A stretch of DNA of 61,400 bases, the filler included, from Deltaproteobacteria bacterium (lineage in GTDB: Bacteria; JACQOV01), in assembly GCA_016202395.1 (NCBI GenBank). It is 3 parts of 3 records of this genome, joined end to end, with 100 filler letters (N's around TTAATTAATTAA, not from the genome) between each part and the next. Parts side by side here need not be neighbours in the genome. Positions count along the whole stretch, not along the records: positions 30,482 to 52,849 come from JACQOV010000040.1; 2 more parts are not named here. The stretch is one strand, 5' to 3'. This document shows, in pieces, positions 3,435 to 61,400 of this stretch (its first letter is position 1; the number at the start of each line of letters is the position of its first letter). The notes beneath the pieces were generated by a model. That model made no database searches and had not been told where the DNA came from. It worked only from the letters and a program-made list of their open reading frames with translations. The translations under genes and the position numbers were made by a program.

Positions 3435-4514
3435 TTAGTTAAAAATTAACAAAACGATTCCGGTAACCACAATATTGGCCAACGCCAATGGCAGAATCAT
3501 CTTCCAACCCATTCTCATCACCTGATCGTATCGGAATCGGGGAAACGTCCACCGTGTTAACACCAACAGCCAACAAAAGAAAAGAACTTTAATAGAAAAC
3601 GACCCCACCTGTAAGAGAGAGACTGCCCAAGGAACGATGGCGAGTTCAGCCCCCCAAGGGAAATGGAATCCATTTCCATAAAGATAGGGGATCTGCCATC
3701 CTCCAAAGAAGAGGGTTGTCACCAACGCAGAGATCACGACGATCTCAGCATATTCCCCCAAAAAAAACATCCCGAAACGGAAGCCGCTGTACTCCAAATG
3801 ATAACCTGCGACGATCTCGCTATCCCCTTCCGGAAGATCAAAAGGGATCCGCTTATTCTCGGCCATCGCTGTGGCCAAAAAAAGGAAGAAGGAGATCGGT
3901 TGGACCAAGATTCCCCACTTCGGGATCCACCCTCCTATCAACTCTCCTTGATATCGAACGAGGTCATCCAATTCCACCGTCCCAAAAATCATGAAGAGCC
4001 CCACCAGAGTGACCCCCATACAAACCTCATAGGAGATCATCTGAGAAGCGGCGCGCATTCCTCCCAACAATGAGTATTTATTGTTCGAAGCCCATCCTCC
4101 GATAATCACGCCATACACCGCTAACGAGGACAAGGCAAAGATGTAGAGAATCCCCACATTGAGATCTGCGATCTGCAGTTTGATCACTCGTTCTCCGATT
4201 TGCAGAACATCCCCAAAGGGGATCACTGCAAAAACAACGAAAACGGGGAAGACCGCTAAGGCTGGAGCGATCTTAAACAAGAACCGATTGGCATGCTGAG
4301 GGACAAAATCTTCCTTCATGATCATCTTGATCGCATCGGCCACAGGGTGCAAAAGTCCAATGAGGCTCATCCCAAAAATTGAGGCGCGATTCGGCCCCAC
4401 TCGATCCTGAACAAGGGCCGACTCTTTTCGTTCGACCCACGTAAGGATCGCCGCCATGTTGAGAAGCATGATCGCCACAACGAACACTTTGATGACTTCG
4501 ATCAAAAAATCCAT
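3435..4514 (-). CDS. nuoH: NADH-quinone oxidoreductase subunit H
   Basis: ERK..QDRVGPN, GWASNNKYSLLGGMRAASQMISYE, PFDLPEGDSEIVAGY, PRFRYDQ. Confidence 0.98.
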   Translation of the reverse strand: MDFLIEVIKVFVVAIMLLNMAAILTWVERKESALVQDRVGPNRASIFGMSLIGLLHPVADAIKMIMKEDFVPQHANRFLFKIAPALAVFPVFVVFAVIPFGDVLQIGERVIKLQIADLNVGILYIFALSSLAVYGVIIGGWASNNKYSLLGGMRAASQMISYEVCMGVTLVGLFMIFGTVELDDLVRYQGELIGGWIPKWGILVQPISFFLFLATAMAENKRIPFDLPEGDSEIVAGYHLEYSGFRFGMFFLGEYAEIVVISALVTTLFFGGWQIPYLYGNGFHFPWGAELAIVPWAVSLLQVGSFSIKVLFFCWLLVLTRWTFPRFRYDQVMRMGWKMILPLALANIVVTGIVLLIFN

Positions 4515-4523
4515 CGTTGAATC

Positions 4524-6251
4524 CTACGGGTTGAACCCCTCACCCTTAGCCCTCTCCCCGCTTTGCGGGGAGAGGGTTTGGGTGAGGGGAAGCATGACCC
4601 CCTTCGAGCCAATCATCTCATACGTCATCCCATGAAACGCGGGGATTTCTTGAGCTAACGCCTCAAAGATTCCTTCCGCCGAAGAGAACTCCCCTCCCTC
4701 GAATCGCTTTACAAACTCTGAGAGAATCTCCCAATCTGCCTTGGCTTCTCCTAAAGGCTCAATGGCTTTCCGAATCCTCTGAACTCTCCCTTGGAAGTTT
4801 GTAAAAGTCCCCTCTTTCTCTGCAAACGTTACACCGGGCAAAACCCACGTGGCGCGGCTTGCAAGGTCACTTGGGTAAGCATCTTGAACCACCAAAAGTT
4901 CCAACCGCTCCATCGCCGAAAGAGCCGAAAGAAAAGTCTCTTTATTCTGAAGATCACGGAGCGGATCTCCTAAACAATAGAGGGCCTTGATCTCTCCCCG
5001 CTCGATCGCTGGCAACAAACCCGCGCCATCCAGAGTGAACTCTTTGTGAAATCCAACGGCCTGCACGCCACGCGTGTTGGGATTCTTGTCCTTTTGAATC
5101 AAGAGATTGTCCTCGAACTCCCCCCAATCGACATCTCCATGAAACCCCGGCCTACCCCCTTTTGGAACGGCCCGATGATACACCGTGGGAGAGGTCCCCA
5201 TCTTCTTCATCCAACGCCACAAAAGATAGTTTTCCTCGTTGGTATGCTGCGCGGAGCCCAAGGCTGCCACGGACGAGGGGCCGCTCTTTTGAGCAATCCC
5301 GCGCATCCGAGAAGCGATGTCCTCAAAAGCATCGGCCCAACCCTTTGCCTGTAATCCGCGAGGCCCCTTCTTGAGAGGCTGACTTAAACGACTCTCCGTA
5401 TGAATCTGTTTGTAACTATATCGACCCACATCGCAGATCCAGTAGCTATTCACGTCGGCATGGAGACGAGGCTTGATGCGATACACCTCGTTGGTCGGAT
5501 GGAAAACGGTATTCTGGACCTGGCCCCCTTTCTTTCGAACATGAAGTTGGATATTGCAACCCCTGCTGCATTGATTGCAGATCGAATCGACTGGCTCCAC
5601 CCACCACACGCGGACCTTAAATCGAAAGTCTTTACTCAGAAGGGCCCCCACGGGACAAACATCGACGAGATTCTCCTGATAATTTCCGGTTAAAGGACGG
5701 TTCTCAAACGTTCCGATCTCCGTGTGATTGCCACGATTGAACCGATTGAGCTCGTAATTTTTCGTGATCTCGTTACAAAAGCGGACGCAACGATCACAAA
5801 GGATGCAACGCTCGGTATCCAAAACGATCTTCTCTCCCAAATGGACCACTTTTCTCTTTTGGACCTTCTCCGCCGTGTTTTTAAAGGCGCTCTTATAGCG
5901 ACCGACCTGCATGTAGTAATTTTGGAGAACACACTCTCCGCTCTGATCGCACACAGGACAGTCGATGGGATGATTGGCCATGTGAAGCTCGTAAATCCCT
6001 TTGCGAGTCTCTTGGATCTCAGGGGTGTTGGTGTAGACCACCATCCCTTCCGCAACGGGCGTGTTACAGGAGATGGCCCCCTTCTTCTGTCCTTCGATGG
6101 CCACTGTGCAAAGACGGCAGACCCCCGCAATCGACAAAGCGGGATGGTAACAAAAGCGAGGGATCGTAATCCCCGCTTTTTGGGCGGCCTCAATGACTTT
6201 AGTCCCCTCCGGAACCTCTACTTTTTTTCCGTCAATCGTGAGTGTCATCAT
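4524..6251 (-). CDS. nuoG: NADH-quinone oxidoreductase subunit G (compact form; start moved to MMTLTIDG)
   Basis: Fe-S motifs CYHPALSIAGVCRLC, HPIDCPVCDQSGEC, CILCDRCVRFC, CNQCSRGC; molybdopterin-oxidoreductase-like C-terminus (EKEGTFTNFQGRVQ). Confidence 0.93.
   Translation of the reverse strand: MMTLTIDGKKVEVPEGTKVIEAAQKAGITIPRFCYHPALSIAGVCRLCTVAIEGQKKGAISCNTPVAEGMVVYTNTPEIQETRKGIYELHMANHPIDCPVCDQSGECVLQNYYMQVGRYKSAFKNTAEKVQKRKVVHLGEKIVLDTERCILCDRCVRFCNEITKNYELNRFNRGNHTEIGTFENRPLTGNYQENLVDVCPVGALLSKDFRFKVRVWWVEPVDSICNQCSRGCNIQLHVRKKGGQVQNTVFHPTNEVYRIKPRLHADVNSYWICDVGRYSYKQIHTESRLSQPLKKGPRGLQAKGWADAFEDIASRMRGIAQKSGPSSVAALGSAQHTNEENYLLWRWMKKMGTSPTVYHRAVPKGGRPGFHGDVDWGEFEDNLLIQKDKNPNTRGVQAVGFHKEFTLDGAGLLPAIERGEIKALYCLGDPLRDLQNKETFLSALSAMERLELLVVQDAYPSDLASRATWVLPGVTFAEKEGTFTNFQGRVQRIRKAIEPLGEAKADWEILSEFVKRFEGGEFSSAEGIFEALAQEIPAFHGMTYEMIGSKGVMLPLTQTLSPQSGERAKGEGFNP
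4536..4589. repeat. CCCTCACCC/CCCTCTCCC palindromic element translated as the NuoG C-terminal tail
   Basis: cccctcaccc..ccctctccccgc-ttt-gcggggagaggg..gggtgagggg; encodes PLTQTLSPQSGERAKGEG. Confidence 0.85.
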
Positions 6252-11941: not shown

Positions 11942-12910
11942 ATGACCTATCCCGAACTTCGCCGCCAAATCCAAACAACCCTTTTCTCGGCTCAGGAACA
12001 GATCCAGAGAATCAAGGTCGAGGCCTACTGGCAAGCGGGACACCACATTCGTCAACACATTCTGGAACACAAAGAGAGGGCAGAATACGGCCAAGAAGTC
12101 CTCCAACGACTCGCTGAGGACACGGGGATCCACAGAACGGCGCTGAACCGCCTGGTCAAATTCTCCCAGGCCTGGCCTCAAAAGGCAATAAGTGCCGCGC
12201 GGCACCAATTGGGATGGAGCCATTACCGAGCCCTCCTCCCGCTCAAAGATCCCAAAAGAGTTAAGATTCTCACCCGCCAAGCGATCCAACTTCATTGGAC
12301 GACCCGAGAACTGGAAGCGAAAGTTCGGGAAGCGAGGTGGACTTCACAACAAAAACGTTTAGAAATCTCACTCCTCGAAAAACCGACCCTGGGGCCCCCC
12401 TATACTTACAAAATCGTCGGTCCTGAAAAACTCCTCGCCCCGCAGGGGGATCTTTTCATCGATCTCGGGTTTACGCTCTACCTCCACACGACCCCCTTTG
12501 AAACAAAGCCCCTCCAAGAAGGAGACATCGTCACCGCGCATCAGGACACTCGCAACCACTTCCAACTCCAGAAGGCCTTGGATCTCACATCGGAAGAGCT
12601 CTTCACCTACCCCGCCACCGTTGAGAAGGTCGTCGATGGCGACACACTGCGCGCCCAGATCGATCTCGGTTTTGGCATTCGAATCCGTCAATATTTAAGA
12701 CTGCGTGGCATCAACACCCCCGAACTAGGAACCCCGCGGGGCGATGCCGCTCATGCTTTTGTTCAGAAGGAACTTGCCAAAGGTTCCCCCATCCTCATCA
12801 AAACGACAAAACCGGAAAAATACGACCGCTACCTCTCCGACGTCTTCTACAAAAACGGCCTTTATCTCAACCAACGCCTCCTCGATAGCGGCCACGCCAT
12901 CCCCGTTTGA
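11942..12910 (+). CDS. DUF1016(YhcG)-N-terminal-like domain fused to a thermonuclease (SNase) domain
   Basis: N-terminal YWQAGHHI..RAEYGQEVLQRLAED..LGWSHYRALL..WTTRELE; C-terminal VVDGDT, RLRGINTPE, KYDRYL, LNQRLLDSGHA. Confidence 0.85.
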   Translation: MTYPELRRQIQTTLFSAQEQIQRIKVEAYWQAGHHIRQHILEHKERAEYGQEVLQRLAEDTGIHRTALNRLVKFSQAWPQKAISAARHQLGWSHYRALLPLKDPKRVKILTRQAIQLHWTTRELEAKVREARWTSQQKRLEISLLEKPTLGPPYTYKIVGPEKLLAPQGDLFIDLGFTLYLHTTPFETKPLQEGDIVTAHQDTRNHFQLQKALDLTSEELFTYPATVEKVVDGDTLRAQIDLGFGIRIRQYLRLRGINTPELGTPRGDAAHAFVQKELAKGSPILIKTTKPEKYDRYLSDVFYKNGLYLNQRLLDSGHAIPV

Positions 12911-22038: not shown

Positions 22039-22211
22039 GTCTCTGAACTCGCTAGTGTAGTGTCCCATTAATCTCTTTACAGTCGTCATCCCCGTGCAAA
22101 CGGGGATCCAGTCCTTTCGATAGGCTGGATTCCCGCTTTCGCGGGAATGACGATCATCGTAAAGAAGTGTTGGTTACACTACACTAGCGAGTTCAGAGAT
22201 CTACCTCCCTT
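22028..22211. mobile_element. Nested palindromic element: 36-bp outer IR enclosing a REP-like doublet
   Basis: AAGGGAGGTAGGTCTCTGAACTCGCTAGTGTAGTGT (22028-22063) versus 22176-22211, one mismatch; inner GTCATCCCCG..CGGGGATCCAG (22085-22111) and CTGGATTCCCGC..GCGGGAATGAC (22125-22151). Confidence 0.8.
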
Positions 22212-30481: not shown

Positions 30482-30624
30482 CGGAGACCAGATTCCCAGC
30501 CTTTGCAGGCATGACATAGGTGAGGCTCATCATAGCCCCACTATACCTCCCTCTACCCCATCTTCCCATCAATACTCCCACTGTTACCGATGTATCTCAA
30601 CCTCTTCAGAGACCTAGAGGCGCC

Positions 30625-30714
30625 CTACAATAACTTCATACCGGAAAAGAAGTAAGCGATTTCCCAGTGGGCGGTCTCAGGGCTGTCGGAGCCATGAACG
30701 ATATTGTGCTCAAT
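30625..30714 (-). pseudogene. Displaced copy of the ndk 3' end (att-like direct repeat)
   Basis: 30646-30714 is identical to 32130-32198; reads [29 protein letters not shown]. Confidence 0.85.
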
Positions 30715-30734
30715 AAATTAGGGGGGGAGATCTC

Positions 30735-30780
30735 TTGACAATCGTTCTATTTTCTGTATAATTTGATACAGGAAATGGAA
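30735..30780 (+). promoter_or_regulatory. abiE promoter with inverted-repeat operator
   Basis: TTGACA-16 nt-TATAAT; imperfect 15-bp IR TTCTATTTTCTGTAT (30745-30759)/ATACAGGAAATGGAA (30766-30780). Confidence 0.75.
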
Positions 30781-30785
30781 TCTAT

Positions 30786-31367
30786 ATGAGATTGGATCGC
30801 ACCATAAAACGGCTACAACAATGCAAACGCAAAACTTTTACTACCCAGGATCTTAAGAAACTCTTAGAGATCCAGCAGGACAATACGGCCTACAAAACAG
30901 CAGAAAGTTTGGTAAGAAAAGAATTCCTTCTGCGATTAAGAAAAGGACTTTTTGCTTTTGCTTTTTCTCCACCTGAGGATTTCGAGGTCGCCAATGCCCT
31001 CTATTCTCCCTCTTATATCTCGCTGGAAACAGCTCTAAACGTGCATGGCATTCTGTCGCAGTTTCCATACCCTATTACCTCGGTGACTCCAAGAAAAACG
31101 AGAAAGTTTCAAACTCTGGATAAAGAGTTTGAATACGTTCACCTTCAAAAAGGGCTATTTTGGGGGTATGAGAAAAAAGGGGCCTTTTTGATAGCGCAAC
31201 CTGAAAAGGCTTTGATGGATCAAATTTATCTCGTATCCAAAGGCTGGAGAAAAATAAATTTCGAAGAACTGGACTACTCAGGATGTGATAGAAAGATCCT
31301 CAAAACGATGGCCTCAAAAATCGCCTATCCTCCTTTCCAGGCTCTTTGGAAGGAGTTGAAATTATGA
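30786..31367 (+). CDS. Type IV TA antitoxin, AbiEi family
   Basis: N-terminal wHTH (LLRLRKGLF), PSYISLETAL..HG, ITSVT, IAQPEKALMD..Y. Confidence 0.88.
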   Translation: MRLDRTIKRLQQCKRKTFTTQDLKKLLEIQQDNTAYKTAESLVRKEFLLRLRKGLFAFAFSPPEDFEVANALYSPSYISLETALNVHGILSQFPYPITSVTPRKTRKFQTLDKEFEYVHLQKGLFWGYEKKGAFLIAQPEKALMDQIYLVSKGWRKINFEELDYSGCDRKILKTMASKIAYPPFQALWKELKL

Positions 31368-32128
31368 TTACAGAAGAACAAACGCAAAAACTATCCCGCC
31401 GATTCTCTATCGATTCCTATTCTATTTTAAGAGAATATCTCCAACTCCTTTTCCTGAAATACCTTTATGAACTTGATGGAAGCGCAAAGATCTATTTTAA
31501 AGGGGGAACGGCAATCCATTTTTTATACGGTTCTTTTCGGTTTTCGGAAGACCTTGATTTCACCTCTCTGCATTCTCCATCCGAATTGAAAAAACTCTCA
31601 AAAGAAGTAGCACAACGACTTATCGTGGAAATGGAAGGGATTGAACTCAAAGACCTGGATTCGAAAGGCCATTCTTTTTCTCAAATGCTCAAATATCGCG
31701 GCCCATTGAAATTTCCACTCACCATTCGTCTGGAGTTTTCATTGAGAGAAAAACCCTTAACCTCTCAAGTGAGCCCTATTGAAACAATTTTCCCAATTAC
31801 CCCTTACCCTCTGGTGACTCATTTAAGCTCTGAAGAGCTTCTTGCAGAAAAAGTGCGAGCCCTGCTCATAAGACATAAGGGGAGAGATCTTTTTGATCTC
31901 TGGTTCTTACTTTCCAAAGGGGTTTCGCTTAGAGAAGATTATGTCGAAGAGAAGATGAAGTGGTATAAAACAACTTATCACCGTCCTGATCTTATCTCCT
32001 CAATCAAAAATTTTAAGGAAAAGGAACTCGAAATGGATCTTAGGAAATTTCTTCCCAAAAATTATCGTTCATTTATTAAAGAGCTCCTAAACAGAACCTT
32101 AAGGCACCTCTCTGTTACAAAATCTTAG
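31364..32128 (+). CDS. Type IV TA toxin, AbiEii/AbiGii nucleotidyltransferase
   Basis: [33 protein letters not shown] overlap with the antitoxin. Confidence 0.92.
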
Positions 32129-32525
32129 GAAAGAAGTAAGCGATTTCCCAGTGGGCGGTCTCAGGGCTGTCGGAGCCATGAACGATATTGTGCTCAATGC
32201 TATCGGCGTATTGGGCGCGCAAAGTGCCTGGAGCCGCTTTTTTAGGGTCGGTGGCTCCCATCAGCTCTCGATTCTTAGCAATGGCATCTTCCCCCTCCAA
32301 CACCATCACCACGCAAGGCCCCGAGCTCATGAAGTCGGTCAAACTTGGGAAAAAGGGCCTGTTTTTGTGAACCTGATAAAACCCTTCCGCCTCTCGCTTG
32401 GAAAGACAAATCATTTTCGCTGCAACGATTTTCAAACCGTTCTTTTCAAAACGAGCCAAGATCTCCCCAATGAGATTCTTCTTCACCGCATCTGGTTTCA
32501 CAATCGATAAGGTTCGCTCTTTCAT
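32115..32525 (-). CDS. ndk: Nucleoside-diphosphate kinase
   Basis: [30 protein letters not shown]. Confidence 0.98.
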
Positions 32526-33450: not shown

Positions 33451-33477
33451 CTGGATTCCCGCTTGCGCGGGAATGAC
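33451..33477. repeat. REP-like hairpin CTGGATTCCCGC..GCGGGAATGAC
   Basis: Same family as 22125-22151; lies in the sucC-sucD spacer. Confidence 0.8.
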
Positions 33478-33483
33478 GGCAAA

Positions 33484-40193: not shown

Positions 40194-40286
40194 GGAGGAT
40201 GGGGTCAGTTTTAAGTTTTTAAGTAACGCTGACCCCATCCTCCTCACTAATCGTTACTTAAAAACTTAAAACTGACCCCATCCTCC
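40194..40286. repeat. Perfect 35-bp inverted repeat with an extra internal arm
   Basis: 40194-40228 is the exact reverse complement of 40252-40286; CTGACCCCATCCTCC also occurs at 40229-40243. Confidence 0.9.
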
Positions 40287-52258: not shown

Positions 52259-52500
52259 GGTCTTTGATCAGGGGCTTGCCATGGAAAAGAGAGTTGGGCA
52301 ATGTTGGTGTTAATGGAGGAAATCCATTTTTCAGAGTGACAACGTTAAGATGTCCTGGAAAATTCATGAAACACCTGGAATTGCTTAAATTTCCTAAAAA
52401 CACCAAAATTTTCATGTTACTTGCAATCAAGCAAACCCTCTACACTCTCTTGGAGCCGACGTCTTAGCATCGACTCGTGGCAAGCGTCAAAAATTTAACG

Positions 52501-52652
52501 CCCCGTTACTGCCGTGTGAGCAGCTCCCATGAACCGAATTTTAAGGTGGGCGCCCTATTGCTGGAGCCTCTGGCTATCCTGGCAAGGAAGGACTCCCGTT
52601 CGGTTTATATTGGTTCTAAATAGATCCACCCATCACGCACAGAACAGGGAAA
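52501..52652 (-). ncRNA. ssrS: 6S RNA
   Basis: Minus strand CCCTGTTCTGTGCGTG..GAACCAA..GGGAG..GCGCCCACCT..GGTTCA..CACACGGCAG..ACGGGG rod with pairing termini and a central bubble; canonical position upstream of ygfA-rny; ends approximate. Confidence 0.8.
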
Positions 52653-52715
52653 CCTATAAACTCCTCTCTGGTTCAAAAAACTCTTTTCACCTCTACCGAG
52701 GTCTGAAACAACCCA

Positions 52716-52949: not shown

Positions 52950-52950
52950 G

Positions 52951-54588
52951 GCCGACTCCTCACTCACCCGAAAGTACGGAGGCACTGGGATGGGATTGGC
53001 GTTAGCGACGGAACTGGTGGAGTTGCATGGAGGCAAGAGAGGGCTGACGAGTGACTTGGGAAAAGGGACGACGGTGGAGTTTACATTACCGATAGAATCC
53101 CCCTATGGTCCCCCTTTAGAAAAGGGGGACAAAGAGTGGGTTAAAGGAGAGGTCGTGGAGGCGGGGGAGTGGACGAAGAAGCTTTACTCGGAGGCGGAGA
53201 GGAGTAGTTTTGGTTTGGTGCAGTCGGGGGGGGAGCAGATTGGGGAGGAGATTGCTTCGTCGCCTTTGGCTCCTCGCAATGACAGAGTCCCCTCACCTCA
53301 GTCCTCTCCCCAAAGGGGAGAGGAAGAAGGAGAGGGGGACAAGCAGCATCGGATCCTCATTGTGGAAGACAATGCGGAGATGCGGGGATTTATTAAATTT
53401 GAGCTTCACAAGCACTATCGAATCTTGGAGGCGGGTGATGGGCAAAAGGGGCTTGAAAGAGCGGCGAAGGAACTTCCCGATCTCATCGTTTCCGACATCA
53501 TGATGCCGGGGGTCGATGGCTACGAGCTCGCTCGCCGGATCAAGGCGGATGTGCACACCCAACACATTCCCGTGATTTTGCTCACCGCTAAAGCCGAGCT
53601 GGCCGATAAAATCGAGGGGCTTGGGATCGGCGCCGATGATTATCTCATCAAGCCGTTCAACCCCAAGGAGCTTCGCGCGCGCGTGAAAAATCTCATTAAC
53701 GTAAGGTCGTTGCAGCGCGAGATTCAACTCCGCAGTAACGAACTCGAAAAAACTTTGAAGCAACTTCAAGAGACGCAGGCCGAGCTCATTCACGCCGAAA
53801 AGATGGCCGCGCTCGGCCAGCTCGTGGCCGGTGTGGCACATGAAGTTAACAACCCAGTTAGCTTTGCCATCAATAGCCTGCTCAATGTGCAGAAGTACGT
53901 AAAACGAATCCGAACGTTGTTGGACGAGTACATGGGCTTAAGTCCTTCCGACAAAGATCGGTTGGAGGAATTCCTTTCCAAAGTAGAGAAAATCAAGCAA
54001 GAGATCTATTTTCCGCAGCTTTTGCAGGATCTCGAAAAATCGCTCCAGATTGTTCACAATGGGCTGGACCGAACCCAAAATATCGTGTCGGATCTCAAAA
54101 CCTTTGCGCAGAAGGATCGCGGAGGGTTCGTGCAGGCCGATATCCATGTAGGGATCGATTCCACGTTGAGCCTGCTCAAGCATGAGTTGGACGGGCGAAT
54201 CAAGGTGCATCGGGATTACGGGCCGCTTTCGCAGATTGAATGTATGCCGGGCCAGATCAATCAGGTGCTCATGAATGTGTTTCACAACGCGATTGGAGCC
54301 ATGCCTAACAAAGGGGATATTTTCATTCGGACGCGCCAGCTCAATGAGCATGTGGAGATTTCCATTAAAGACACCGGCGTTGGCATTGCTCCCGAGGTGA
54401 AGCGCAAAATTTTTGACCCTTTCTTCACCACAAAGGAGGTTGGCAAAGGCATGGGGCTGGGCTTAAGCGTTTCGTATCGTATTATCGAATCGCACGGTGG
54501 AAAGATCCGTGTGGAAAGCGACCCCGGCCGCGGCGCCGAATTTATCATCCTCCTCCCTCTCCGCCAACCTGCTTCCAATGTTCATTGA
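52951..54588 (+). CDS. Hybrid sensor histidine kinase, 5'-partial (HATPase tail - receiver - HisKA - HATPase)
   Basis: TRKYGGTGMGLA G2 box; REC (IVEDN, SDIMMP, KPF); AGVAHEVNNP; DPFFTTK..GMGLGL. Confidence 0.93.
   Translation, partial: ADSSLTRKYGGTGMGLALATELVELHGGKRGLTSDLGKGTTVEFTLPIESPYGPPLEKGDKEWVKGEVVEAGEWTKKLYSEAERSSFGLVQSGGEQIGEEIASSPLAPRNDRVPSPQSSPQRGEEEGEGDKQHRILIVEDNAEMRGFIKFELHKHYRILEAGDGQKGLERAAKELPDLIVSDIMMPGVDGYELARRIKADVHTQHIPVILLTAKAELADKIEGLGIGADDYLIKPFNPKELRARVKNLINVRSLQREIQLRSNELEKTLKQLQETQAELIHAEKMAALGQLVAGVAHEVNNPVSFAINSLLNVQKYVKRIRTLLDEYMGLSPSDKDRLEEFLSKVEKIKQEIYFPQLLQDLEKSLQIVHNGLDRTQNIVSDLKTFAQKDRGGFVQADIHVGIDSTLSLLKHELDGRIKVHRDYGPLSQIECMPGQINQVLMNVFHNAIGAMPNKGDIFIRTRQLNEHVEISIKDTGVGIAPEVKRKIFDPFFTTKEVGKGMGLGLSVSYRIIESHGGKIRVESDPGRGAEFIILLPLRQPASNVH
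53097..53340. repeat. Three different palindromic repeat types in frame in the kinase linker
   Basis: GTCCCCCTTT-AGA-AAAGGGGGAC (53108-53130); GAGATTGCTTCGTCGC..GCTCCTCGCAATGAC (53248-53283); CCCCTCACC..CCTCTCCCC-AAA-GGGGAGAGG (53287-53340). Confidence 0.8.
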
Positions 54589-54624
54589 GAAGCATCAAAA
54601 GTTTTCGGATTCTTAAAGGGCCTC

Positions 54625-54664
54625 TTTACATGTCAGTACAAATGTATTACAATAAGAATTGTAT
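54625..54664 (+). promoter_or_regulatory. TA promoter with short palindromic operators
   Basis: TTTACA-17 nt-TACAAT; TACA-AA-TGTA and TACAAT-AAGA-ATTGTA. Confidence 0.55.
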
Positions 54665-54919
54665 ATGAAAGAGATCCAATGGGATGTTAAAAAGAGCGAG
54701 ACATTAAAGCAAACTCGTGGCGTTTCTTTTGAGGAGATCCTTCAATCCAAATTAATAGCAGTGAAAAAACATCCCAAGCGGTCTCATCAAAATATTATGC
54801 TCTTTGAGTGTAATAATTATGTTTGGGTGGTGCCGTATGTGGAAAAACAAGACATTATTTTTCTAAAGACGCTTTTTCCAAGTCGGAAATACACGAAATT
54901 ATACAAAGGAGGCATTTAA
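54665..54919 (+). CDS. BrnT-like type II toxin
   Basis: WD..K...LKQTRGVSFEEI, YVWVVPYV, FLKTLFPSRK. Confidence 0.8.
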   Translation: MKEIQWDVKKSETLKQTRGVSFEEILQSKLIAVKKHPKRSHQNIMLFECNNYVWVVPYVEKQDIIFLKTLFPSRKYTKLYKGGI

Positions 54920-54920
54920 T

Positions 54921-55169
54921 ATGAAAAACATTCGTCTCCATCGTCAAGAAAAAGAAATTGAACAGGCTCTTTTAGAAGGAGAGTACATGGATATAGGCTC
55001 GAAAGAATTTGAGGAGATTGCTAGTGCTGTGGCCGTAAGGAAAAAAGATGCGGTTTTAAACATTCGAGTCAATGGTCAAGATTTAAAACGGGTCAAGCAG
55101 AAAGCCAAACGTTTGGGTGTCAAATATCAAACCTTAATCTCTGAGTTTATTCACCGCCTTGCTGCTTAG
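54921..55169 (+). CDS. CopG/RHH-type antitoxin
   Basis: KKDAVLNIRV...DL..VK.KA..LGVKYQTLI. Confidence 0.8.
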   Translation: MKNIRLHRQEKEIEQALLEGEYMDIGSKEFEEIASAVAVRKKDAVLNIRVNGQDLKRVKQKAKRLGVKYQTLISEFIHRLAA

Positions 55170-55307
55170 CATGGCACACATCATCAGGCTTCTGAACATC
55201 ATCTTGTTCGTATTGTTGATGAGTCAGGTCAATCTTATCTCTATCCTGAAGATTATTTTGTTGCCATTCAATTGCCTCAACCCGTCTTGGAAGCGCTAGC
55301 TGCCTAA
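55170..55307 (+). pseudogene. Start-less 45-codon remnant in frame with the antitoxin stop
   Basis: HGTHHQASEHHLVRIVDESGQSYLYPEDYFVAIQLPQPVLEALAA*; the RIVDESG..YLYP..YF pattern resembles the C-half of a small conserved hypothetical protein. Confidence 0.5.
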
Positions 55308-55382
55308 GGGGGACTCTGTCGTACGGATTATCGAATCGTTGCCCATTGACGATATCGGCTTGCAAATGGTACACTCCGAAAC

Positions 55383-55823
55383 ATGAAGATGAAGTTGACG
55401 GTGGCTTTCTTAGGATTGCTGACTCTGTTTTTTCTTCCTTCTTTGGCTGTTGCGGTTGAGGTGGCACCCCACATCACCGATAGGGAGATTATAGAGCGCC
55501 TAACCCGATTAGAGGAAGGTCAGCAGAACCTTGAGAAACGGATCGATGATCTTAGATCGGAGATGAATGGTCGTTTTTCGGAGGTGAACGGTCGTTTTAG
55601 TGACCTGCGTTCCGAAATGAACAGCCGCTTCGACACTCTCCAATGGATGATGAGTTTGTTTATTACAATCTCACTGGTGATTCTCGGTTTTGTGCTTCGG
55701 ATGCAATGGCAGATGCAAAAAAGACAGGCCCATGTAGAAACGGCTTTGGAGACTCAAAAAGATGAGCTCGCCTTCCTGAAGGGGCTCATCCAAAAACTCC
55801 TTCCCCCCAAAGGCGTGCTTTAG
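55383..55823 (+). CDS. Exported/membrane coiled-coil protein with heptad repeats
   Basis: Signal peptide, (SE)MNGRF repeats (21-bp tandem 55557-55598), one TM helix, C-terminal coil. Confidence 0.75.
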   Translation: MKMKLTVAFLGLLTLFFLPSLAVAVEVAPHITDREIIERLTRLEEGQQNLEKRIDDLRSEMNGRFSEVNGRFSDLRSEMNSRFDTLQWMMSLFITISLVILGFVLRMQWQMQKRQAHVETALETQKDELAFLKGLIQKLLPPKGVL

Positions 55824-55859
55824 CAAGATTAAAGATTGGGTATTATAGAAGGGAATGAA

Positions 55860-55944
55860 TGCCGCGGGAGGGAGTCGAACCCTCACACCCACGAGGGGCT
55901 TCGGATTTTGAGTCCGACGCGTCTGCCAATTCCGCCACCGCGGC
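55860..55944 (-). tRNA. tRNA-Leu(CAA)
   Basis: Cloverleaf GCCGCGG acceptor, TCGGA-CTCAAAA-TCCGA anticodon arm, long variable arm, GGTTCGACTCC; CCA not encoded. Confidence 0.96.
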
Positions 55945-56040
55945 AACGGTGAGATAGGGGATAACATAGTCGATATTGGATTGCAATCCCTCGCTTAATT
56001 GACAAAGATCCAACATTTTTAATACGATGGAACTTGCATT

Positions 56041-56113
<73 letters not shown>

Positions 56114-56129
56114 CTTTTTTTATTCTATT

Positions 56130-56795
56130 GTGAAACCTAGAAAACATCTGTTCGTTTTCTTCATTTTTTCGTTGGGGGCGATTCAAAACGCGCCATCTCA
56201 ACCGAACGACGCCTGTCTCCATTCTTTTCGCGAGCAGATTGCGGGGAAGGACTATCTCCAGCAGTTCGAGGTTGTTAAGAGCTTGAAGAAAGCGGAGATG
56301 GCCTGCCTTTTTTATGCGACTCAAAATGAGCCTCTTTTAGAGCCCGACTTTTTGATCGATTCTGAAAATCCCCAGAAGGTTCAGAAATTTTATGGGAAAA
56401 ACAGCTTGATCCTTTTTAATCAGTTTGAGAAGCACTTTTTCTCTGTGGACTCGGCGGGTTCTGAAAAGGTTTATGGATACAACCTCTTTCTCGTGGGGAA
56501 GATTTTTAGAAGCTATGGGTTTTTCTATGCGGATGCTGGCCAAAGGCCGGAAGAGCTCGTTTTAGAGTACGATCTGGATTTTCCGGAGTTGATTCCTCAA
56601 GAGCGATGGGATACGTTGGGCAATCGAGCGGGGAGTGTGAAAAAGATCAAAGGGAATCGAGGGGATCTCATTTTCGATCGCATTAAAGATATCCTTCATC
56701 CCGTCGCGGAAAATGTCGCTGTGGGGCGAGCGGTTCGTGTCCGAAACGGAAAAGAACAACATCTTACCTATTTTGTGATCTTGCGTGTCCCGTGA
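56130..56795 (+). CDS. Hypothetical exported protein
   Basis: GTG start after the tRNA, signal-peptide-like N-terminus, GTGA overlap with the next gene. Confidence 0.65.
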   Translation: MKPRKHLFVFFIFSLGAIQNAPSQPNDACLHSFREQIAGKDYLQQFEVVKSLKKAEMACLFYATQNEPLLEPDFLIDSENPQKVQKFYGKNSLILFNQFEKHFFSVDSAGSEKVYGYNLFLVGKIFRSYGFFYADAGQRPEELVLEYDLDFPELIPQERWDTLGNRAGSVKKIKGNRGDLIFDRIKDILHPVAENVAVGRAVRVRNGKEQHLTYFVILRVP

Positions 56796-57778
56796 AAAAT
56801 AATCCCCAAGCCCAGTTTGCGATAGAGGCCGTTTGCAAGGGGGCCCAGCTCGCCCAGCAGATTCAAGACGAGATTGGCGCCTCTTCCATTACAAAAAGCG
56901 ATCGATCTCCTGTCACGATGGCTGATTTTGCGGTTCAAGCATTTATCGGCGCGCAGTTTGAAAAATACTTTCCGAACGAGCTTCTTGTTGGGGAAGAAGA
57001 GATCTCCTTTTTCGAAGGTTCGCACGGAGAGATTGTTTTAAAGAAGGTTGTCGATTTTGTTCGCCGTTACTTTCCTAAAGCCGACTCAGAGGCCGTTCGT
57101 TCCTGGGTTCATCGTGGAGCGTCCGAGCCGGCGGAGCGTTTTTGGACACTCGATCCGATCGATGGGACCAAAGGATATTTACGAGGGGAGCAGTACGCGG
57201 TGGCTTTGGCCCTGGTTGAGAAAGGGGAGGTGCAGATCGGCGCTCTCGGTTGTCCCCATCTGACTCCGGAGGGGAGGCCCCAAAAGAGGGGGAGTGGGGC
57301 GGTATTCGTTGCTGTTCGGGGGGAAGGGGCATGGGGAACCTCCCTGCAAAAGATGAAGCAGCTTCATCGCCTCTCTGTTTCGGATTGTGCCGATCCAAAG
57401 CGGGCTTGTCTGCTCCGTTCTGTGGAGAAGAGCCACACCGATGTGGAGCGAATCGATCGTCTGTTAGAGGCCCTGGGGACTTCGGTTGAGCCGATCTTCA
57501 TGGACAGCCAAGCCAAGTACGCTGTTTTGGCAGCCGGTGGAGGGGATTTTTTGATCCGATTTCCTTCGTTGAGCCGAGCCGCAGGGCAGATGCAGATCTG
57601 GGATCATGCTGCGGGCGGATTAATCATCGAAGAGGCGGGAGGACGGATTACCGACATCGATGGAAAGCCACTGGACTTTACCACCGGCCGACTTCTTCTT
57701 CGGAATCGTGGAATTTTGGCGACCAATCGTCATCTTCATGATGTGCTTCTTGAGGCGATTCAAAAGATACTTCCATGA
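56792..57778 (+). CDS. 3'(2'),5'-bisphosphate nucleotidase, HAL2/SAL1-like
   Basis: K.D.SPVT.AD, VGEE, FWTLDPIDGTKGYLRGEQYAVALAL, LGCP, DSQAKY, IWDHAAG. Confidence 0.9.
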   Translation: MKNNPQAQFAIEAVCKGAQLAQQIQDEIGASSITKSDRSPVTMADFAVQAFIGAQFEKYFPNELLVGEEEISFFEGSHGEIVLKKVVDFVRRYFPKADSEAVRSWVHRGASEPAERFWTLDPIDGTKGYLRGEQYAVALALVEKGEVQIGALGCPHLTPEGRPQKRGSGAVFVAVRGEGAWGTSLQKMKQLHRLSVSDCADPKRACLLRSVEKSHTDVERIDRLLEALGTSVEPIFMDSQAKYAVLAAGGGDFLIRFPSLSRAAGQMQIWDHAAGGLIIEEAGGRITDIDGKPLDFTTGRLLLRNRGILATNRHLHDVLLEAIQKILP

Positions 57779-58821
57779 CGAAGAATACGTCAAAACAGGA
57801 TGTCCGAAATCTATCCTATGAAGAACTGACTCAGCGCTTGGAAAGTATGGGGGAAAAGTCTTTTCGGGCTCAGCAGATCTTTGAATGGATTTACCAAAAG
57901 GGGGCCGTCTCCTTCGATGTCATGACCAATCTTTCGAACAGGCTTCGCGAAGGTCTTAAGCAGGAATGGGACCTTTCACCCCCAATGATTGCCTCGAAGC
58001 AGGTCTCCAAAGACGGCGCCACCAAATTTTTGTTGGACTTGGAAGATCATGAAAAGGTGGAAACCGTATTAATCCCTACAGCGAATAGAACGACCGTGTG
58101 TGTTTCCACTCAAGCCGGATGTAAATTCGGCTGTCGTTTTTGCGCGAGCGGTCTGGGTGGATGGACGCGTAATCTCACCGTGGCCGAGATTCTCGCCCAA
58201 ATTTTGCATGTGAAAGAAGAGGCTAAAAAGCGCAAAAAGCCTTTGTCTCACGTTGTGTTTATGGGAACAGGGGAAAATCTAGACACCTATGAAAATTTGA
58301 TGAAGGCCATTCGGATTATTAATTCTAAGGAAGGGCTCCACATCGGGGCTCGGCGCATCACGATATCCACAGTCGGCATCATTCCTAAAATCAAACGGTT
58401 GGCTCAGGAGCGTATTCAGGTGGAGTTGGCTGTTTCATTGCATGGTTACAATGATGAATCTAGAAATAAACTGATGCCCGTCAACAAAAGATATCCCTTC
58501 ACCGATTTGATTCAAGCCTGTCGAGACTATATCGAGGAGACGAATCGCCAAATCACTTTTGAATATATTTTAATTCAAGGTTTAACCTGCACGGAAGAGG
58601 CTGCTCAAGAGTTGGCCAAACATTTAAAAGGGATGCTTTGTAAAATGAATCTCATCCCTTACAATCCTGTCTCCGAATTTGACCACAACCCCCCCACCGA
58701 ATCAGAAATGCTCGCGTTCAAAGAATCTCTTTTTCAACGCGGGATTCATGCCACCCTCCGAACTCCCCGCGGTCAAGATGTGTCGGCCGCCTGCGGGCAA
58801 TTAAGGCATGCCTCAAAATAG
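57775..58821 (+). CDS. rlmN: Dual-specificity RNA methyltransferase RlmN
   Basis: FRAQQI..W, CKFGCRFC radical SAM motif, FMGTGE, NLIPYN, AACGQL. Confidence 0.95.
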   Translation: MTKNTSKQDVRNLSYEELTQRLESMGEKSFRAQQIFEWIYQKGAVSFDVMTNLSNRLREGLKQEWDLSPPMIASKQVSKDGATKFLLDLEDHEKVETVLIPTANRTTVCVSTQAGCKFGCRFCASGLGGWTRNLTVAEILAQILHVKEEAKKRKKPLSHVVFMGTGENLDTYENLMKAIRIINSKEGLHIGARRITISTVGIIPKIKRLAQERIQVELAVSLHGYNDESRNKLMPVNKRYPFTDLIQACRDYIEETNRQITFEYILIQGLTCTEEAAQELAKHLKGMLCKMNLIPYNPVSEFDHNPPTESEMLAFKESLFQRGIHATLRTPRGQDVSAACGQLRHASK

Positions 58822-58834
58822 AGGTGCCCTAAAG

Positions 58835-60370
58835 TTAACCTCGTTCAAAATGTTGCAAGCGGCGGTCGAGCGACCGAAGTTGGATGGCCTCCGCTAGATG
58901 ACGAGGCAGGATCTCTTCGCTAGCATCGAGATCGGCGATCGTTCGCGCCACTTTAAGGATGCGGTTAAACCCGCGAGCGCTGAGCTGCAATCGCTCCATC
59001 GCCTTTTCCATCAAGAACTTCCCTTGAGAAGGCAAAGGGCAGAGCCGACGGAGCCATCGCAGCGGGATCTCGGAATTCCATCGAAACTCAAAGGGCCTCC
59101 AACGTTCTCGTTGAATCTTTTGAGCCTCCACCACGCGGCATTGAACCCTTGCAGAGCTTTCTCCGGTCCCGCCGCCGAGCAGCTCATGAGAGGGGAGTGG
59201 AGGGACCTCCACGTGAAGATCGATCCGATCGAGAAGCGGCCCTGAGAGTCGAGATCGATACCGAACGATTTGAGGAAGCAGACACTGGCATTCTTTGGTG
59301 GGATCGGTAAAAAATCCGCAGGGGCAAGGGTTCATCGCGGCGACCAACAAAAATCGAGAAGGATAAGTGATGGAACCCGAAGCGCGGGCGATTCGAACCA
59401 CTCCTTCTTCCAGAGGTTGACGGAGAGCTTCCAATCCGTTTCTGCGAAACTCCGGGAGTTCATCTAAAAAGAGGATGCCATTGTGAGCCAGGCTCACCTC
59501 GCCTGGGCGAAGCTCTGTTCCTCCTCCGATGAGGGCAATATCGGAGGTGGTGTGATGGGGAGCGCGGAAAGGAGGATGGCGGAGTAACCCGCTGGAAGGG
59601 GGAAGCCCGTGAACGCTATAGATCTTGGTTGTTTCCAGACTCTCCTCGAAAGTAAGAGGGGAGAGGATGGTAGGAAACCGTTGCGCAAGCAAGGTCTTGC
59701 CAGAGCCGGGGGGACCTACGAAAAGGATGTTGTGACGTCCCGCAGCAGCAATTTCCATGGCTCTTCTAGCGAATGCTTGGCCTTGGATCTCTTGAAGATC
59801 GACTAGATAGGAGGGGGTTTTTTCGTGTTCTGGATCTAAAACATGCGGTGGAATCTCCAGATTCCCATTGAGAAAGTCGACCACCTCGGGGAGTGTTTCA
59901 ATGGGGATCGTCTGAATCCCTTTAATGGCCGCCGCTTCGTTGGCATTGATTCGGGGCAGCACAATCCCCTTGAGTTTTAGGTGGGGGACGGCTGCGGCAA
60001 TGCAGAGAACCCCTGGCACCGATTTCACTTGACCATCGAGGGAAAGCTCCCCCAAGAAAAGATAATCTCCAACTCTTTCACTCGCAATAACCCCTGTGGC
60101 GGCCAAGATGCCGATGGCGATCGGGAGATCGAAGGCGCTCCCCCCTTTCTTTTGGTCGGCTGGGGCAAGGTTGACGGTGATCTTTCGTCTTGGCAGATCA
60201 TAACCGCAGTTTTTGAGAGCGCTCCGGACCCGTTCTTTACTCTCCCGAACCGCCCCTTCGACGAGGCCGACCAATGCGAATTGGGGAAGCCCCAGATGAA
60301 GGTCGACCTGTACCTCGACAGGGGAGGCCTCAATCCCTTGAGCGGTGCCGCTTAATACCTTTGCAACCAT
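58835..60370 (-). CDS. comM: YifB/ComM family Mg-chelatase-like AAA+ ATPase
   Basis: ITVNLAPA, GPPGSGKT, FRAPHH, PGEVSLAHNGILFLDELPEF, AMNPCPCG, VARTIADL. Confidence 0.93.
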   Translation of the reverse strand: MVAKVLSGTAQGIEASPVEVQVDLHLGLPQFALVGLVEGAVRESKERVRSALKNCGYDLPRRKITVNLAPADQKKGGSAFDLPIAIGILAATGVIASERVGDYLFLGELSLDGQVKSVPGVLCIAAAVPHLKLKGIVLPRINANEAAAIKGIQTIPIETLPEVVDFLNGNLEIPPHVLDPEHEKTPSYLVDLQEIQGQAFARRAMEIAAAGRHNILFVGPPGSGKTLLAQRFPTILSPLTFEESLETTKIYSVHGLPPSSGLLRHPPFRAPHHTTSDIALIGGGTELRPGEVSLAHNGILFLDELPEFRRNGLEALRQPLEEGVVRIARASGSITYPSRFLLVAAMNPCPCGFFTDPTKECQCLLPQIVRYRSRLSGPLLDRIDLHVEVPPLPSHELLGGGTGESSARVQCRVVEAQKIQRERWRPFEFRWNSEIPLRWLRRLCPLPSQGKFLMEKAMERLQLSARGFNRILKVARTIADLDASEEILPRHLAEAIQLRSLDRRLQHFERG

Positions 60371-60455
60371 AGCTCCTCTATACTCTATCGATCGCTCAGA
60401 GCCCAATGTTGCCTCCTTTTGACAAATAAATCGTGCGAATTTACAATGAAGTCCC

Positions 60456-61301
60456 ATGAAACAACTCCTTCCTGCTTGGATTCGTTCCTTTTTTCGGATA
60501 GTTCGCCTTGTTTTTCAGCGGATTCATAGCGACAGAATTCTGGGCCGGTCGGCGGAGATGGCCTACCTCACCCTCTTGGCCCTGGTCCCTGTAGCCGCTA
60601 TCCTTCTTTCTCTCCTTGCGCGCGTTTGGACGGTTTCCGAAAAGATGGTTCAGATCCAACAAAGGCTATTCGAGTTGGTGATCCCTTCTACGGCTGTGGT
60701 TGTGATTGATTACATCCATAGCTTCGCGCAGAACGCTACGGCCGTGAGCTACGTGGGGTTCATTTTCTTTCTCCTTGCGGCCGCAGGCCTTTTCAATGGG
60801 ATTGAAGCCACCTTTAACAACATTTGGGGATTGAAACGTTCTCGACCCCGGTATGTGAAGCTTCTCGCATTTTGCGGTTTTTTCACTGTGGCCCCATTTC
60901 TTCTGGGGCTTTCGACCTACGTGACTGTCTATGTGGCCGATTTGGAGGTGTTTCGAGAGATGCTGGGTGTGGGCTTTGTTCACAGGATTTTACGTGTGGG
61001 GATCCCCTATCTCCTTACTTTTTTAGGGTTTTCTGTGGCCTATTTCGTGATGCCTCACTCGAAAGTTCGAAAAGAGGCGGCTTTGATCGGAGGAGGGGTA
61101 GCAGCCCTCCTTTGGGAAGGGGCCAAAGAGGGGTTCGATTACTACATCTCCCATGTGGTGGACTATAGCCATCTCTATGGGGCCTTAGGGGTTATCCCGA
61201 TTTTCCTCGTATGGCTCTACGTTTCTTGGTTGGCGATCCTTTTCGGGGCCGAACTGAGTTTTGTCCTCCATAACCATACGAAGGGGATGGATATTATTTA
61301 A
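60456..61301 (+). CDS. YihY/virulence factor BrkB family membrane protein
   Basis: AY.TLLALVP, FNNIW, LWE.AK..F..Y, YGALG.IP.FL.WLY.SW...L.GAE. Confidence 0.92.
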   Translation: MKQLLPAWIRSFFRIVRLVFQRIHSDRILGRSAEMAYLTLLALVPVAAILLSLLARVWTVSEKMVQIQQRLFELVIPSTAVVVIDYIHSFAQNATAVSYVGFIFFLLAAAGLFNGIEATFNNIWGLKRSRPRYVKLLAFCGFFTVAPFLLGLSTYVTVYVADLEVFREMLGVGFVHRILRVGIPYLLTFLGFSVAYFVMPHSKVRKEAALIGGGVAALLWEGAKEGFDYYISHVVDYSHLYGALGVIPIFLVWLYVSWLAILFGAELSFVLHNHTKGMDII

Positions 61302-61380
61302 CCATTTGATTTTAAATGATATTTTTATATTGACAAACTTCGATGGAAGTGTTAATTTAAGGATGTAGCTTTGTTTTGAT

Positions 61381-61400
61381 AGGCTGTTCAAAAAGCTCCA
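61381..61400 (+). repeat. Start of another copy of the 13687-13842 MITE
   Basis: AGGCTGTTCAAAAAGCTCCA is identical to 13717-13736. Confidence 0.7.

Follow-up and report, generated by a model that had tools for sequence, protein, structure and literature searches.

A self-contained AbiE operon between perfect 69-nt repeats in the 3' end of ndk in a Deltaproteobacteria bacterium

The AbiE cassette and the two ends of ndk

The DNA analyzed here (61,400 nucleotides (nt), filler included; referred to below as the window) comes from the genome of a Deltaproteobacteria bacterium (assembly GCA_016202395.1) and consists of three contigs joined by N-linkers of 100 nt (positions 1-30381, 30482-52849, and 52950-61400). 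At the left end of contig 2, which starts at position 30482, a compact toxin-antitoxin (TA) operon of the AbiE type, abiEi-abiEii, is located in the 3' end of the chromosomal gene ndk, between two identical copies of a 69-nt ndk segment (Table 1). The original prediction for this locus had described the repeats, the two alternative ndk tails and the convergent overlap of ndk with the toxin gene, and all these descriptions were borne out.

Table 1. Features of the ndk-abiE locus, with positions counted along the window.
Feature	Position	Strand	Remarks
Left flank	30482..30624	.	presumed native DNA 3' of the original ndk stop; GC content 51.2%, host-like
Displaced ndk tail, SGMKLL + stop	30625..30645	-	probably the original gene end
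Left (orphan) repeat copy, attR-like	30646..30714	-	100% identical to 32130-32198; not expressed as a gene
Inserted cassette	30715..32129	+	1,415 nt: promoter, operator, abiEi, abiEii, nothing else
Predicted abiE promoter, TTGACA-16 nt-TATAAT	30735..30762	+	12/12 match to the sigma-70 consensus; 20 nt from the left cassette edge
Candidate AbiEi operator	30745..30780	+	inverted repeat, 15-nt arms around a 6-nt spacer, 87% complementary; overlaps the -10 box
abiEi, predicted antitoxin and transcriptional repressor	30786..31367	+	193 amino acids (aa); PADLOC AbiEi, 4.1e-35 over residues 16-191 (176 residues)
abiEii, predicted DUF1814 nucleotidyltransferase toxin	31364..32128	+	254 aa; PF08843, 7.9e-32; PADLOC AbiEii, 2.7e-39
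New ndk tail, PKIL + stop	32115..32129	-	exact antisense of the last abiEii codons (VTKS*)
Right repeat copy, attL-like	32130..32198	-	within intact ndk; includes the NxxHGSD catalytic-His motif
ndk	32115..32525	-	intact, 136 aa; last gene after sucC-sucD

The promoter, its operator-like inverted repeat and the two genes account for the whole cassette, as the original prediction had it. The ATG of abiEii overlaps the stop codon of abiEi (ATGA), and the abiEii stop is followed, after a single nucleotide, by the right repeat. AbiEii scored 111.5 bits in PF08843 (cutoff 22.5) and is full length in comparison with 14 homologues. Residues G47 G48, R59, D63, D65, K163, R170, and R174-D175..D178 are invariant in the alignment of these 15 sequences, and the nucleotidyltransferase (NTase) motifs I (hGG), II (R..DhD), III (K..A...R), and IV (+DxxD) are all intact; residues of these motifs are reported to be needed for toxicity (Dy et al., 2014; PMC3985639). 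AbiEi had no match in Pfam, and its match in NCBIfam (NF047376, 3.7e-15, 56.1 bits) lies below the cutoff of 150. The Pfam match of the toxin and the PADLOC match of the antitoxin (Table 1) confirm the proposed AbiE identity, and the gene pair is assigned to the AbiE systems (type IV toxin-antitoxin / abortive infection) as a new member of the family. In Streptococcus agalactiae, AbiEi has been described as repressing its own promoter via inverted repeats (PMC3985639). With a consensus promoter, an operator-like inverted repeat, coupled genes and four NTase motifs, the cassette is predicted to be functionally complete.

No recombinase is encoded in the cassette. Moreover, no integrase, transposase, or relaxase was found among 58 of the 59 open reading frames (ORFs) of at least 90 aa in the window, the one left out running into an N-linker; the locus is thus integrase-less, as it had been called.

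The two repeat copies are identical at 69/69 nt, with a start-to-start distance of 1,484 nt, and form the longest natural repeat of the window, the N-linkers set aside. On the minus strand both encode the same 23 residues, including the catalytic-His motif. The right copy is a part of the intact gene, whose product belongs to PF00334 (3.7e-59 over residues 3-134) and NF001908 (210 bits, cutoff 155) and has an intact motif, NIVHGSD. This gene ends in FFPKIL* (stop at 32115-32117) and overlaps convergently with abiEii (stop at 32126-32128) by 14 nt. The left copy ends in FFSGMKLL* (stop at 30625-30627); as an in-frame TAA lies two codons upstream and a start codon is absent, it is a dead fragment. 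For comparison, we collected 80 ndk loci by a scan of species-representative genomes (Ndk 68-75% identical; mostly Betaproteobacteria, few Nitrospirota and others). In these species, the homologous 69 nt are identical at only 40-49 of 69 positions (58-71%), and no exact run exceeds 16 nt; hence the repeat is a true duplication, explained neither by chance nor by conservation. By this measure, the two copies can be taken to share a recent common origin within this lineage. Extended homology beyond the 69 nt was rejected, since the local alignment of the 60-nt flanks was not significant, being reached by 651 of 5,000 shuffles on the tail side and by 3,492 of 5,000 on the 5' side. At the inner borders of the two 69-nt repeats, a short imperfect direct repeat can be read by eye: the cassette starts with AAATTAGG (30715-30724) and ends with AAATCTTAGG (32120-32129).

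Which of the two tails is the original end of ndk was considered with the help of Ndk relatives sought in a set of 5.8 billion proteins. The three closest proteins (90%, 89%, and 82% identical) end in FFPLLGHL, FFPGTKLL, and FFPGASFPA, respectively. The orphan tail, SGMKLL, has the same length as the tails of the first two, PLLGHL and PGTKLL, which favors it as the original end; it also shares four of six residues (G, K, L, L) with PGTKLL of the 89% identical protein (P0003). The PKIL ending is present in none of the 12 Ndk homologues fetched and at none of the 80 ndk loci, and in this respect the comparison of Ndk C-termini with relatives, proposed as a check of the original prediction, came out in its favor. 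On the other hand, all three closest relatives carry P after FF, as does the intact copy and as the orphan copy does not. Furthermore, the last three codons of the new and the old tail (K-I-L-stop and K-L-L-stop) are identical at 7 of 9 nt, which was equalled by 6 of 4,128 control 9-mers preceding stop triplets in the window in a post hoc test. Given this match, the "replacement" tail may itself be ndk-derived, and the element-borne tail may descend, with divergence, from an ndk end instead of being read there by accident. The view that the displaced copy carries the ancestral end is favored by the length of its tail, its residues and the absence of PKIL in relatives, and is qualified by the missing proline and by the similarity of the two tails. 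As to the protein itself, natural Ndk tails after FF vary from 2 to 10 residues (13 sequences), which suggests that Ndk-PKIL is probably functional: it keeps all conserved residues up to YFF, exchanges only a variable six-residue tail for a four-residue one, and should still work.

The GC content of the cassette is 39.6%, compared to 50.0±1.9% in 553 other 1,415-nt segments of the window (minimum 43.4%), which places it 5.5 standard deviations under the mean. The closest homologue of AbiEii and that of AbiEi in the 5.8-billion-protein set are each 65% identical, and the AbiE relatives for which a source is named represent several different phyla. Considering the low GC content, the protein relatives of at most 65% identity and their spread over phyla, the cassette is assigned to foreign, horizontally acquired DNA. 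Relatives of AbiEii on plasmids are at most 33% identical, and no DNA match to the cassette was found in plasmid or phage collections. Among the 20 best AbiEii relatives, 11 lie on contigs of 1.3-2.0 kb, versus 2 of 20 for Ndk and 3 of 19 for AbiEi; since the AbiEi relatives give only 3 of 19, such cassette-sized contigs are not a convincing sign of mobility. Named Ndk relatives at 70-76% identity also belong to several phyla.

Routes of insertion

In topology the arrangement is attL/attR-like, as expected of an integrated circle, and the reading we prefer is that the abiEi-abiEii operon entered the 3' end of ndk by one Campbell-type crossover with a circle of approximately 1,484 nt. This circle would consist of the self-contained, horizontally acquired operon and a segment identical to 69 nt of the chromosomal ndk, and one reciprocal crossover between the gene and the circle would duplicate exactly the shared segment. 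After the first copy, circle-derived sequence would follow (PKIL*, antisense of the abiEii end), and the distal copy would retain the native end (SGMKLL*) together with the native downstream DNA; with a single crossover, the distal tail must be the native one. As the cassette has no recombinase, the crossover could be made either by host homologous recombination (RecA) or by a recombinase encoded elsewhere. A length of 69 nt exceeds the minimal homology for recombination by RecA. Later recombination between the repeats would restore the original ndk (SGMKLL) and free the circle, while toxin-antitoxin addiction, if AbiE is active, would oppose the loss of the cassette; AbiE is reported to stabilize plasmids (PMC3985639) and an integrative and conjugative element (ICE) (PMC11062541).

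Several points weigh against this model. A circle with 69 nt identical to the host ndk must derive from the same lineage, and thus an earlier, unexplained event is needed; for this reason we give the Campbell-type crossover an about even chance of being correct. The locus is single: neither a circle junction, nor an empty site, nor a second example was seen, and the 5.8-billion-protein set contained no near-identical cassette. The left repeat copy lies only 164 nt from the start of contig 2, the left junction being that of the assembly. With 1 nt following the abiEii stop and 20 nt preceding the -35 box, the cassette edges leave no room for lambda-like attP arm-type sites. The 69-mer shows no structure above shuffled sequences (z -0.76 and -0.29), and its sole internal palindrome, judged by eye, was not counted as significant. 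Finally, duplicated ends of ndk were sought in other genomes, with results on the same side. When the last 100 nt of each ndk were searched by blastn-short against the locus they come from, none of the 80 loci revealed a second ndk 3' end, the extra matches being four 14-nt chance ones, and the last 120 nt of ndk are present in exactly one copy in 5,425 of 5,426 complete Escherichia coli genomes.

These two surveys also concern the suggestion that ndk is an unrecognized integration hotspot, for which a search for duplicated ndk 3' ends with cargo between the copies had been proposed; it returned none in the 80 loci and none in the 5,425 E. coli genomes. AbiE was found at none of the 80 ndk loci. 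Instead, rlmN directly follows ndk, within 400 nt of its stop, at 73 of them. The other seven comprise three Nitrospirota with ubiD after ndk, a locus with a second ndk, one with a holA-like gene, one with a flank that is too short, and a locus without rlmN (L028) at which the chosen downstream ORF has no Pfam family. The distance to rlmN was used because the ORFs chosen at first after ndk were a crude measure, 25 of 79 having no Pfam family. In literature searches on ndk and integration, no natural ndk attachment (att) site was found, only one engineered vector locus of Bacillus subtilis; among the titles and abstracts listed in further searches, there was no analogous TA islet. On these grounds ndk as a general hotspot was rejected: it is not supported by the sampled genomes, the close relatives of this organism being outside the sample.

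Three observations made in the course of these surveys can be added. The locus with a second ndk (L014, a Chlamydiae metagenome-assembled genome) contains, according to tblastn, two complete tandem genes rather than a 3' fragment (3876-4301 and 4327-4884, 73% and 62% identical to the query). In the remaining E. coli genome (NZ_CP044293.1), only the last 39 nt of the 120-nt query match, with no annotated feature there, and ndk appears to be largely deleted. In the organism studied here, rlmN is found at 57775-58821 (+), on a different contig from ndk.

An alternative to the circle is a one-step illegitimate insertion, in which ndk took up a linear piece of DNA with abiE, either at a break whose nicks were 69 nt apart or by a replication template switch. 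Fill-in synthesis would then duplicate the 69 nt with no circle or att site, and PKIL* would be a chance coding of the inserted end. The perfect identity of the repeats follows directly from this scheme, as both copies would be the host's own DNA, and it is consistent with the minimal edges of the cassette (from promoter to stop codon plus 1 nt), with PKIL* being the exact antisense of the abiEii end, with the absence of a recombinase and of any other example at ndk, and with the insignificant alignment of the flanks outside the repeat. However, the similarity of the last three codons of the two tails, albeit noticed post hoc, would be unexpected for a random end, and we know of no bacterial insertion mechanism with 69-nt target duplications as an outcome. 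We consider such an insertion unlikely.

The locus could also be what is left of a larger island, that is, of an integrase-bearing element at the ndk 3' end in which internal deletions spared only abiE and the att repeats. Its outline agrees with the definition of cis-mobilizable elements (CIMEs) as att-flanked elements without integration and transfer genes (PMC6323972; PMC5704250), ICEs are reported to carry AbiE systems (PMC11062541), and AbiE systems to stabilize mobile elements (PMC3985639). Still, no remnant of other genes is present, and the edges, 20 nt and 1 nt from functional sequence, would require two very precise deletions; in addition, none of the 80 loci has an integrase-bearing element adjoining ndk. 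Because remnants are totally absent, we regard decay from an island as distinctly improbable.

An assembly artefact deserves mention, as the window is made of contigs joined by linkers and the left repeat copy is so near to the contig start. A dispersed palindromic element is represented, in diverged form, by the first ~35 nt of the left flank (30482-30516), which align to copies at 22125 and 33451 with 21 invariant columns, so that contig 2 starts on a dispersed repeat, which is an ordinary cause of an assembly break. In an artefact of this sort, the assembler would have merged two strain variants, one carrying the cassette and one lacking it, at the 69 nt they have in common, and the left copy and its flank would lie beside the cassette in no genome. 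This is very unlikely, because an assembler should not be able to invent the junction between ndk and the abiE promoter (30714|30715), which some real molecule, and hence real reads, must carry.

Returning to the Campbell-type crossover, we can see a slim chance that the cassette represents a whole unrecognized class: single self-promoted TA operons that use a short 3' end of a housekeeping gene as their sole "integration module", encode no mobility gene, and travel within a lineage as circles of about 1.5 kb, the host's homologous recombination or a simple-site recombinase borrowed from elsewhere bringing them into and out of the chromosome. If so, the ndk-like end of the element-borne tail (7 of 9 nt) would be a relic of the carried gene end.

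Many chromosomal defence systems have no mobility genes nearby, and their route of arrival is often unclear. The locus described here is a very clean case, in which the smallest functional unit (promoter, antitoxin, and toxin) is placed in the dispensable last codons of a core gene; the perfect duplication records the joining event and could permit precise loss. If the population from which the DNA came contains circles or empty sites, the locus would serve as a directly testable model of how defence cassettes move without a recombinase or with one acting in trans, and would show a TA pair locking itself into an essential-pathway operon.

Surroundings in the three contigs

To the right of the insertion, ndk is the last gene of a tricarboxylic acid (TCA) cycle cluster with genes for 2-oxoacid:ferredoxin oxidoreductase, icd, mdh, sdh, and sucCD. 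To the left, the flank (30482-30624) had no match to tRNA, tmRNA, or Rfam families, and thus no RNA gene was found there that could be the true target. The dispersed palindromic element is a GC-rich, intergenic sequence of ~28 nt (CTGGATTCCCGC..GCGGGAATGACG) found at 22125-22152 and 33451-33478, with the diverged copy at the contig 2 start as the third.

Other features are distant from the locus. An 80-nt inverted repeat with 98% identity links the start of contig 1 (105-184) and the very end of contig 2 (52770-52849); these contigs may be neighbors in the genome, or both may contain a dispersed element. Close to the same end of contig 2 lies a gene for 6S RNA (52496-52653, minus strand; RF00013, 56.3 bits, gathering score 46.4). 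At 40194-40286, in the interval from icd to the oxidoreductase genes, two perfectly matching 35-nt inverted arms flank a 23-nt spacer and would fold into a long hairpin. A gene for a DUF1016 / nuclease-like protein (11942-12910, plus strand; PF17761, 2.8e-20) is placed between the nuo operon and gpsA; two ORFs that matched no family adjoin it, and this region may be another small accessory insert.

Comparison with known systems

Of the mobile elements described so far, CIMEs, e.g., those at the 3' ends of streptococcal housekeeping genes, have lost their integration and transfer genes and are flanked by att sites (PMC6323972; PMC5704250). The ndk cassette resembles them in its attL/attR-like repeats containing a gene 3' end, here as a perfect 69-nt repeat, in the lack of its own integration and transfer genes, and in a cargo that would benefit the host or the element. 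Unlike it, CIMEs are described as decay products of ICEs or of integrative and mobilizable elements with a known cognate element; the ndk cassette shows neither a remnant nor a cognate integrase-bearing element and measures only 1.4 kb. Descent of this kind would be expected to leave traces, and we found no spare sequence in the 1,415 nt, no element at the 80 ndk loci and no DNA match among plasmids and phages. The target differs as well, ndk not having been found as a natural att site in the literature searches.

The AbiE systems of S. agalactiae and Lactococcus (Dy et al., 2014; PMC3985639) have, according to the published description, the same bicistronic abiEi-abiEii organization, the DUF1814 NTase motifs I-IV and inverted repeats at the promoter, and are known to stabilize mobile DNA. 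The ndk-cassette AbiE, known here from sequence, belongs to a distant subfamily (no Pfam match for AbiEi; NCBIfam 56 versus 150 bits) and, unlike them, is chromosomal and located in the end of a core gene.

Insertion into the last codons of a conserved gene, direct repeats and rebuilding of the target 3' end are also reported for the island SGI1 at trmE (PMC6531882). However, islands of this type span tens of kilobases and bring an integrase of their own, while the ndk cassette has no integrase, and the rebuilt ndk tail is both shorter than the original and different from it.

With an integron gene cassette the insert shares its small size, its single function and the need it would have for a recombinase supplied from another locus; unlike such a cassette, it is accompanied by neither attC, intI nor attI and does not stand in an array. 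An attC-like hairpin was rejected in view of the single nucleotide after the abiEii stop, the unremarkable folding of the 69-mer and the lack of an integrase in the window. A transposon or insertion sequence is likewise not indicated, as there is no transposase, the duplication is 69 nt long, and no terminal inverted repeats at 30715/32129 were among the repeat pairs reported.

Set beside these systems, the locus is a minimal, recombinase-less, single-operon insert, one unreplicated example at a target for which the literature searches gave no natural att site. We regard it as one well-defined instance of gene insertion, which is no evidence that a general insertion hotspot exists.

A further analogy is offered by laboratory insertion-duplication of the Campbell type, where the duplicated segment is the homology carried on the circle and the distal part of the gene is displaced. 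The ndk cassette has the same topology, but as a natural case, with no vector backbone, replicon, or marker.

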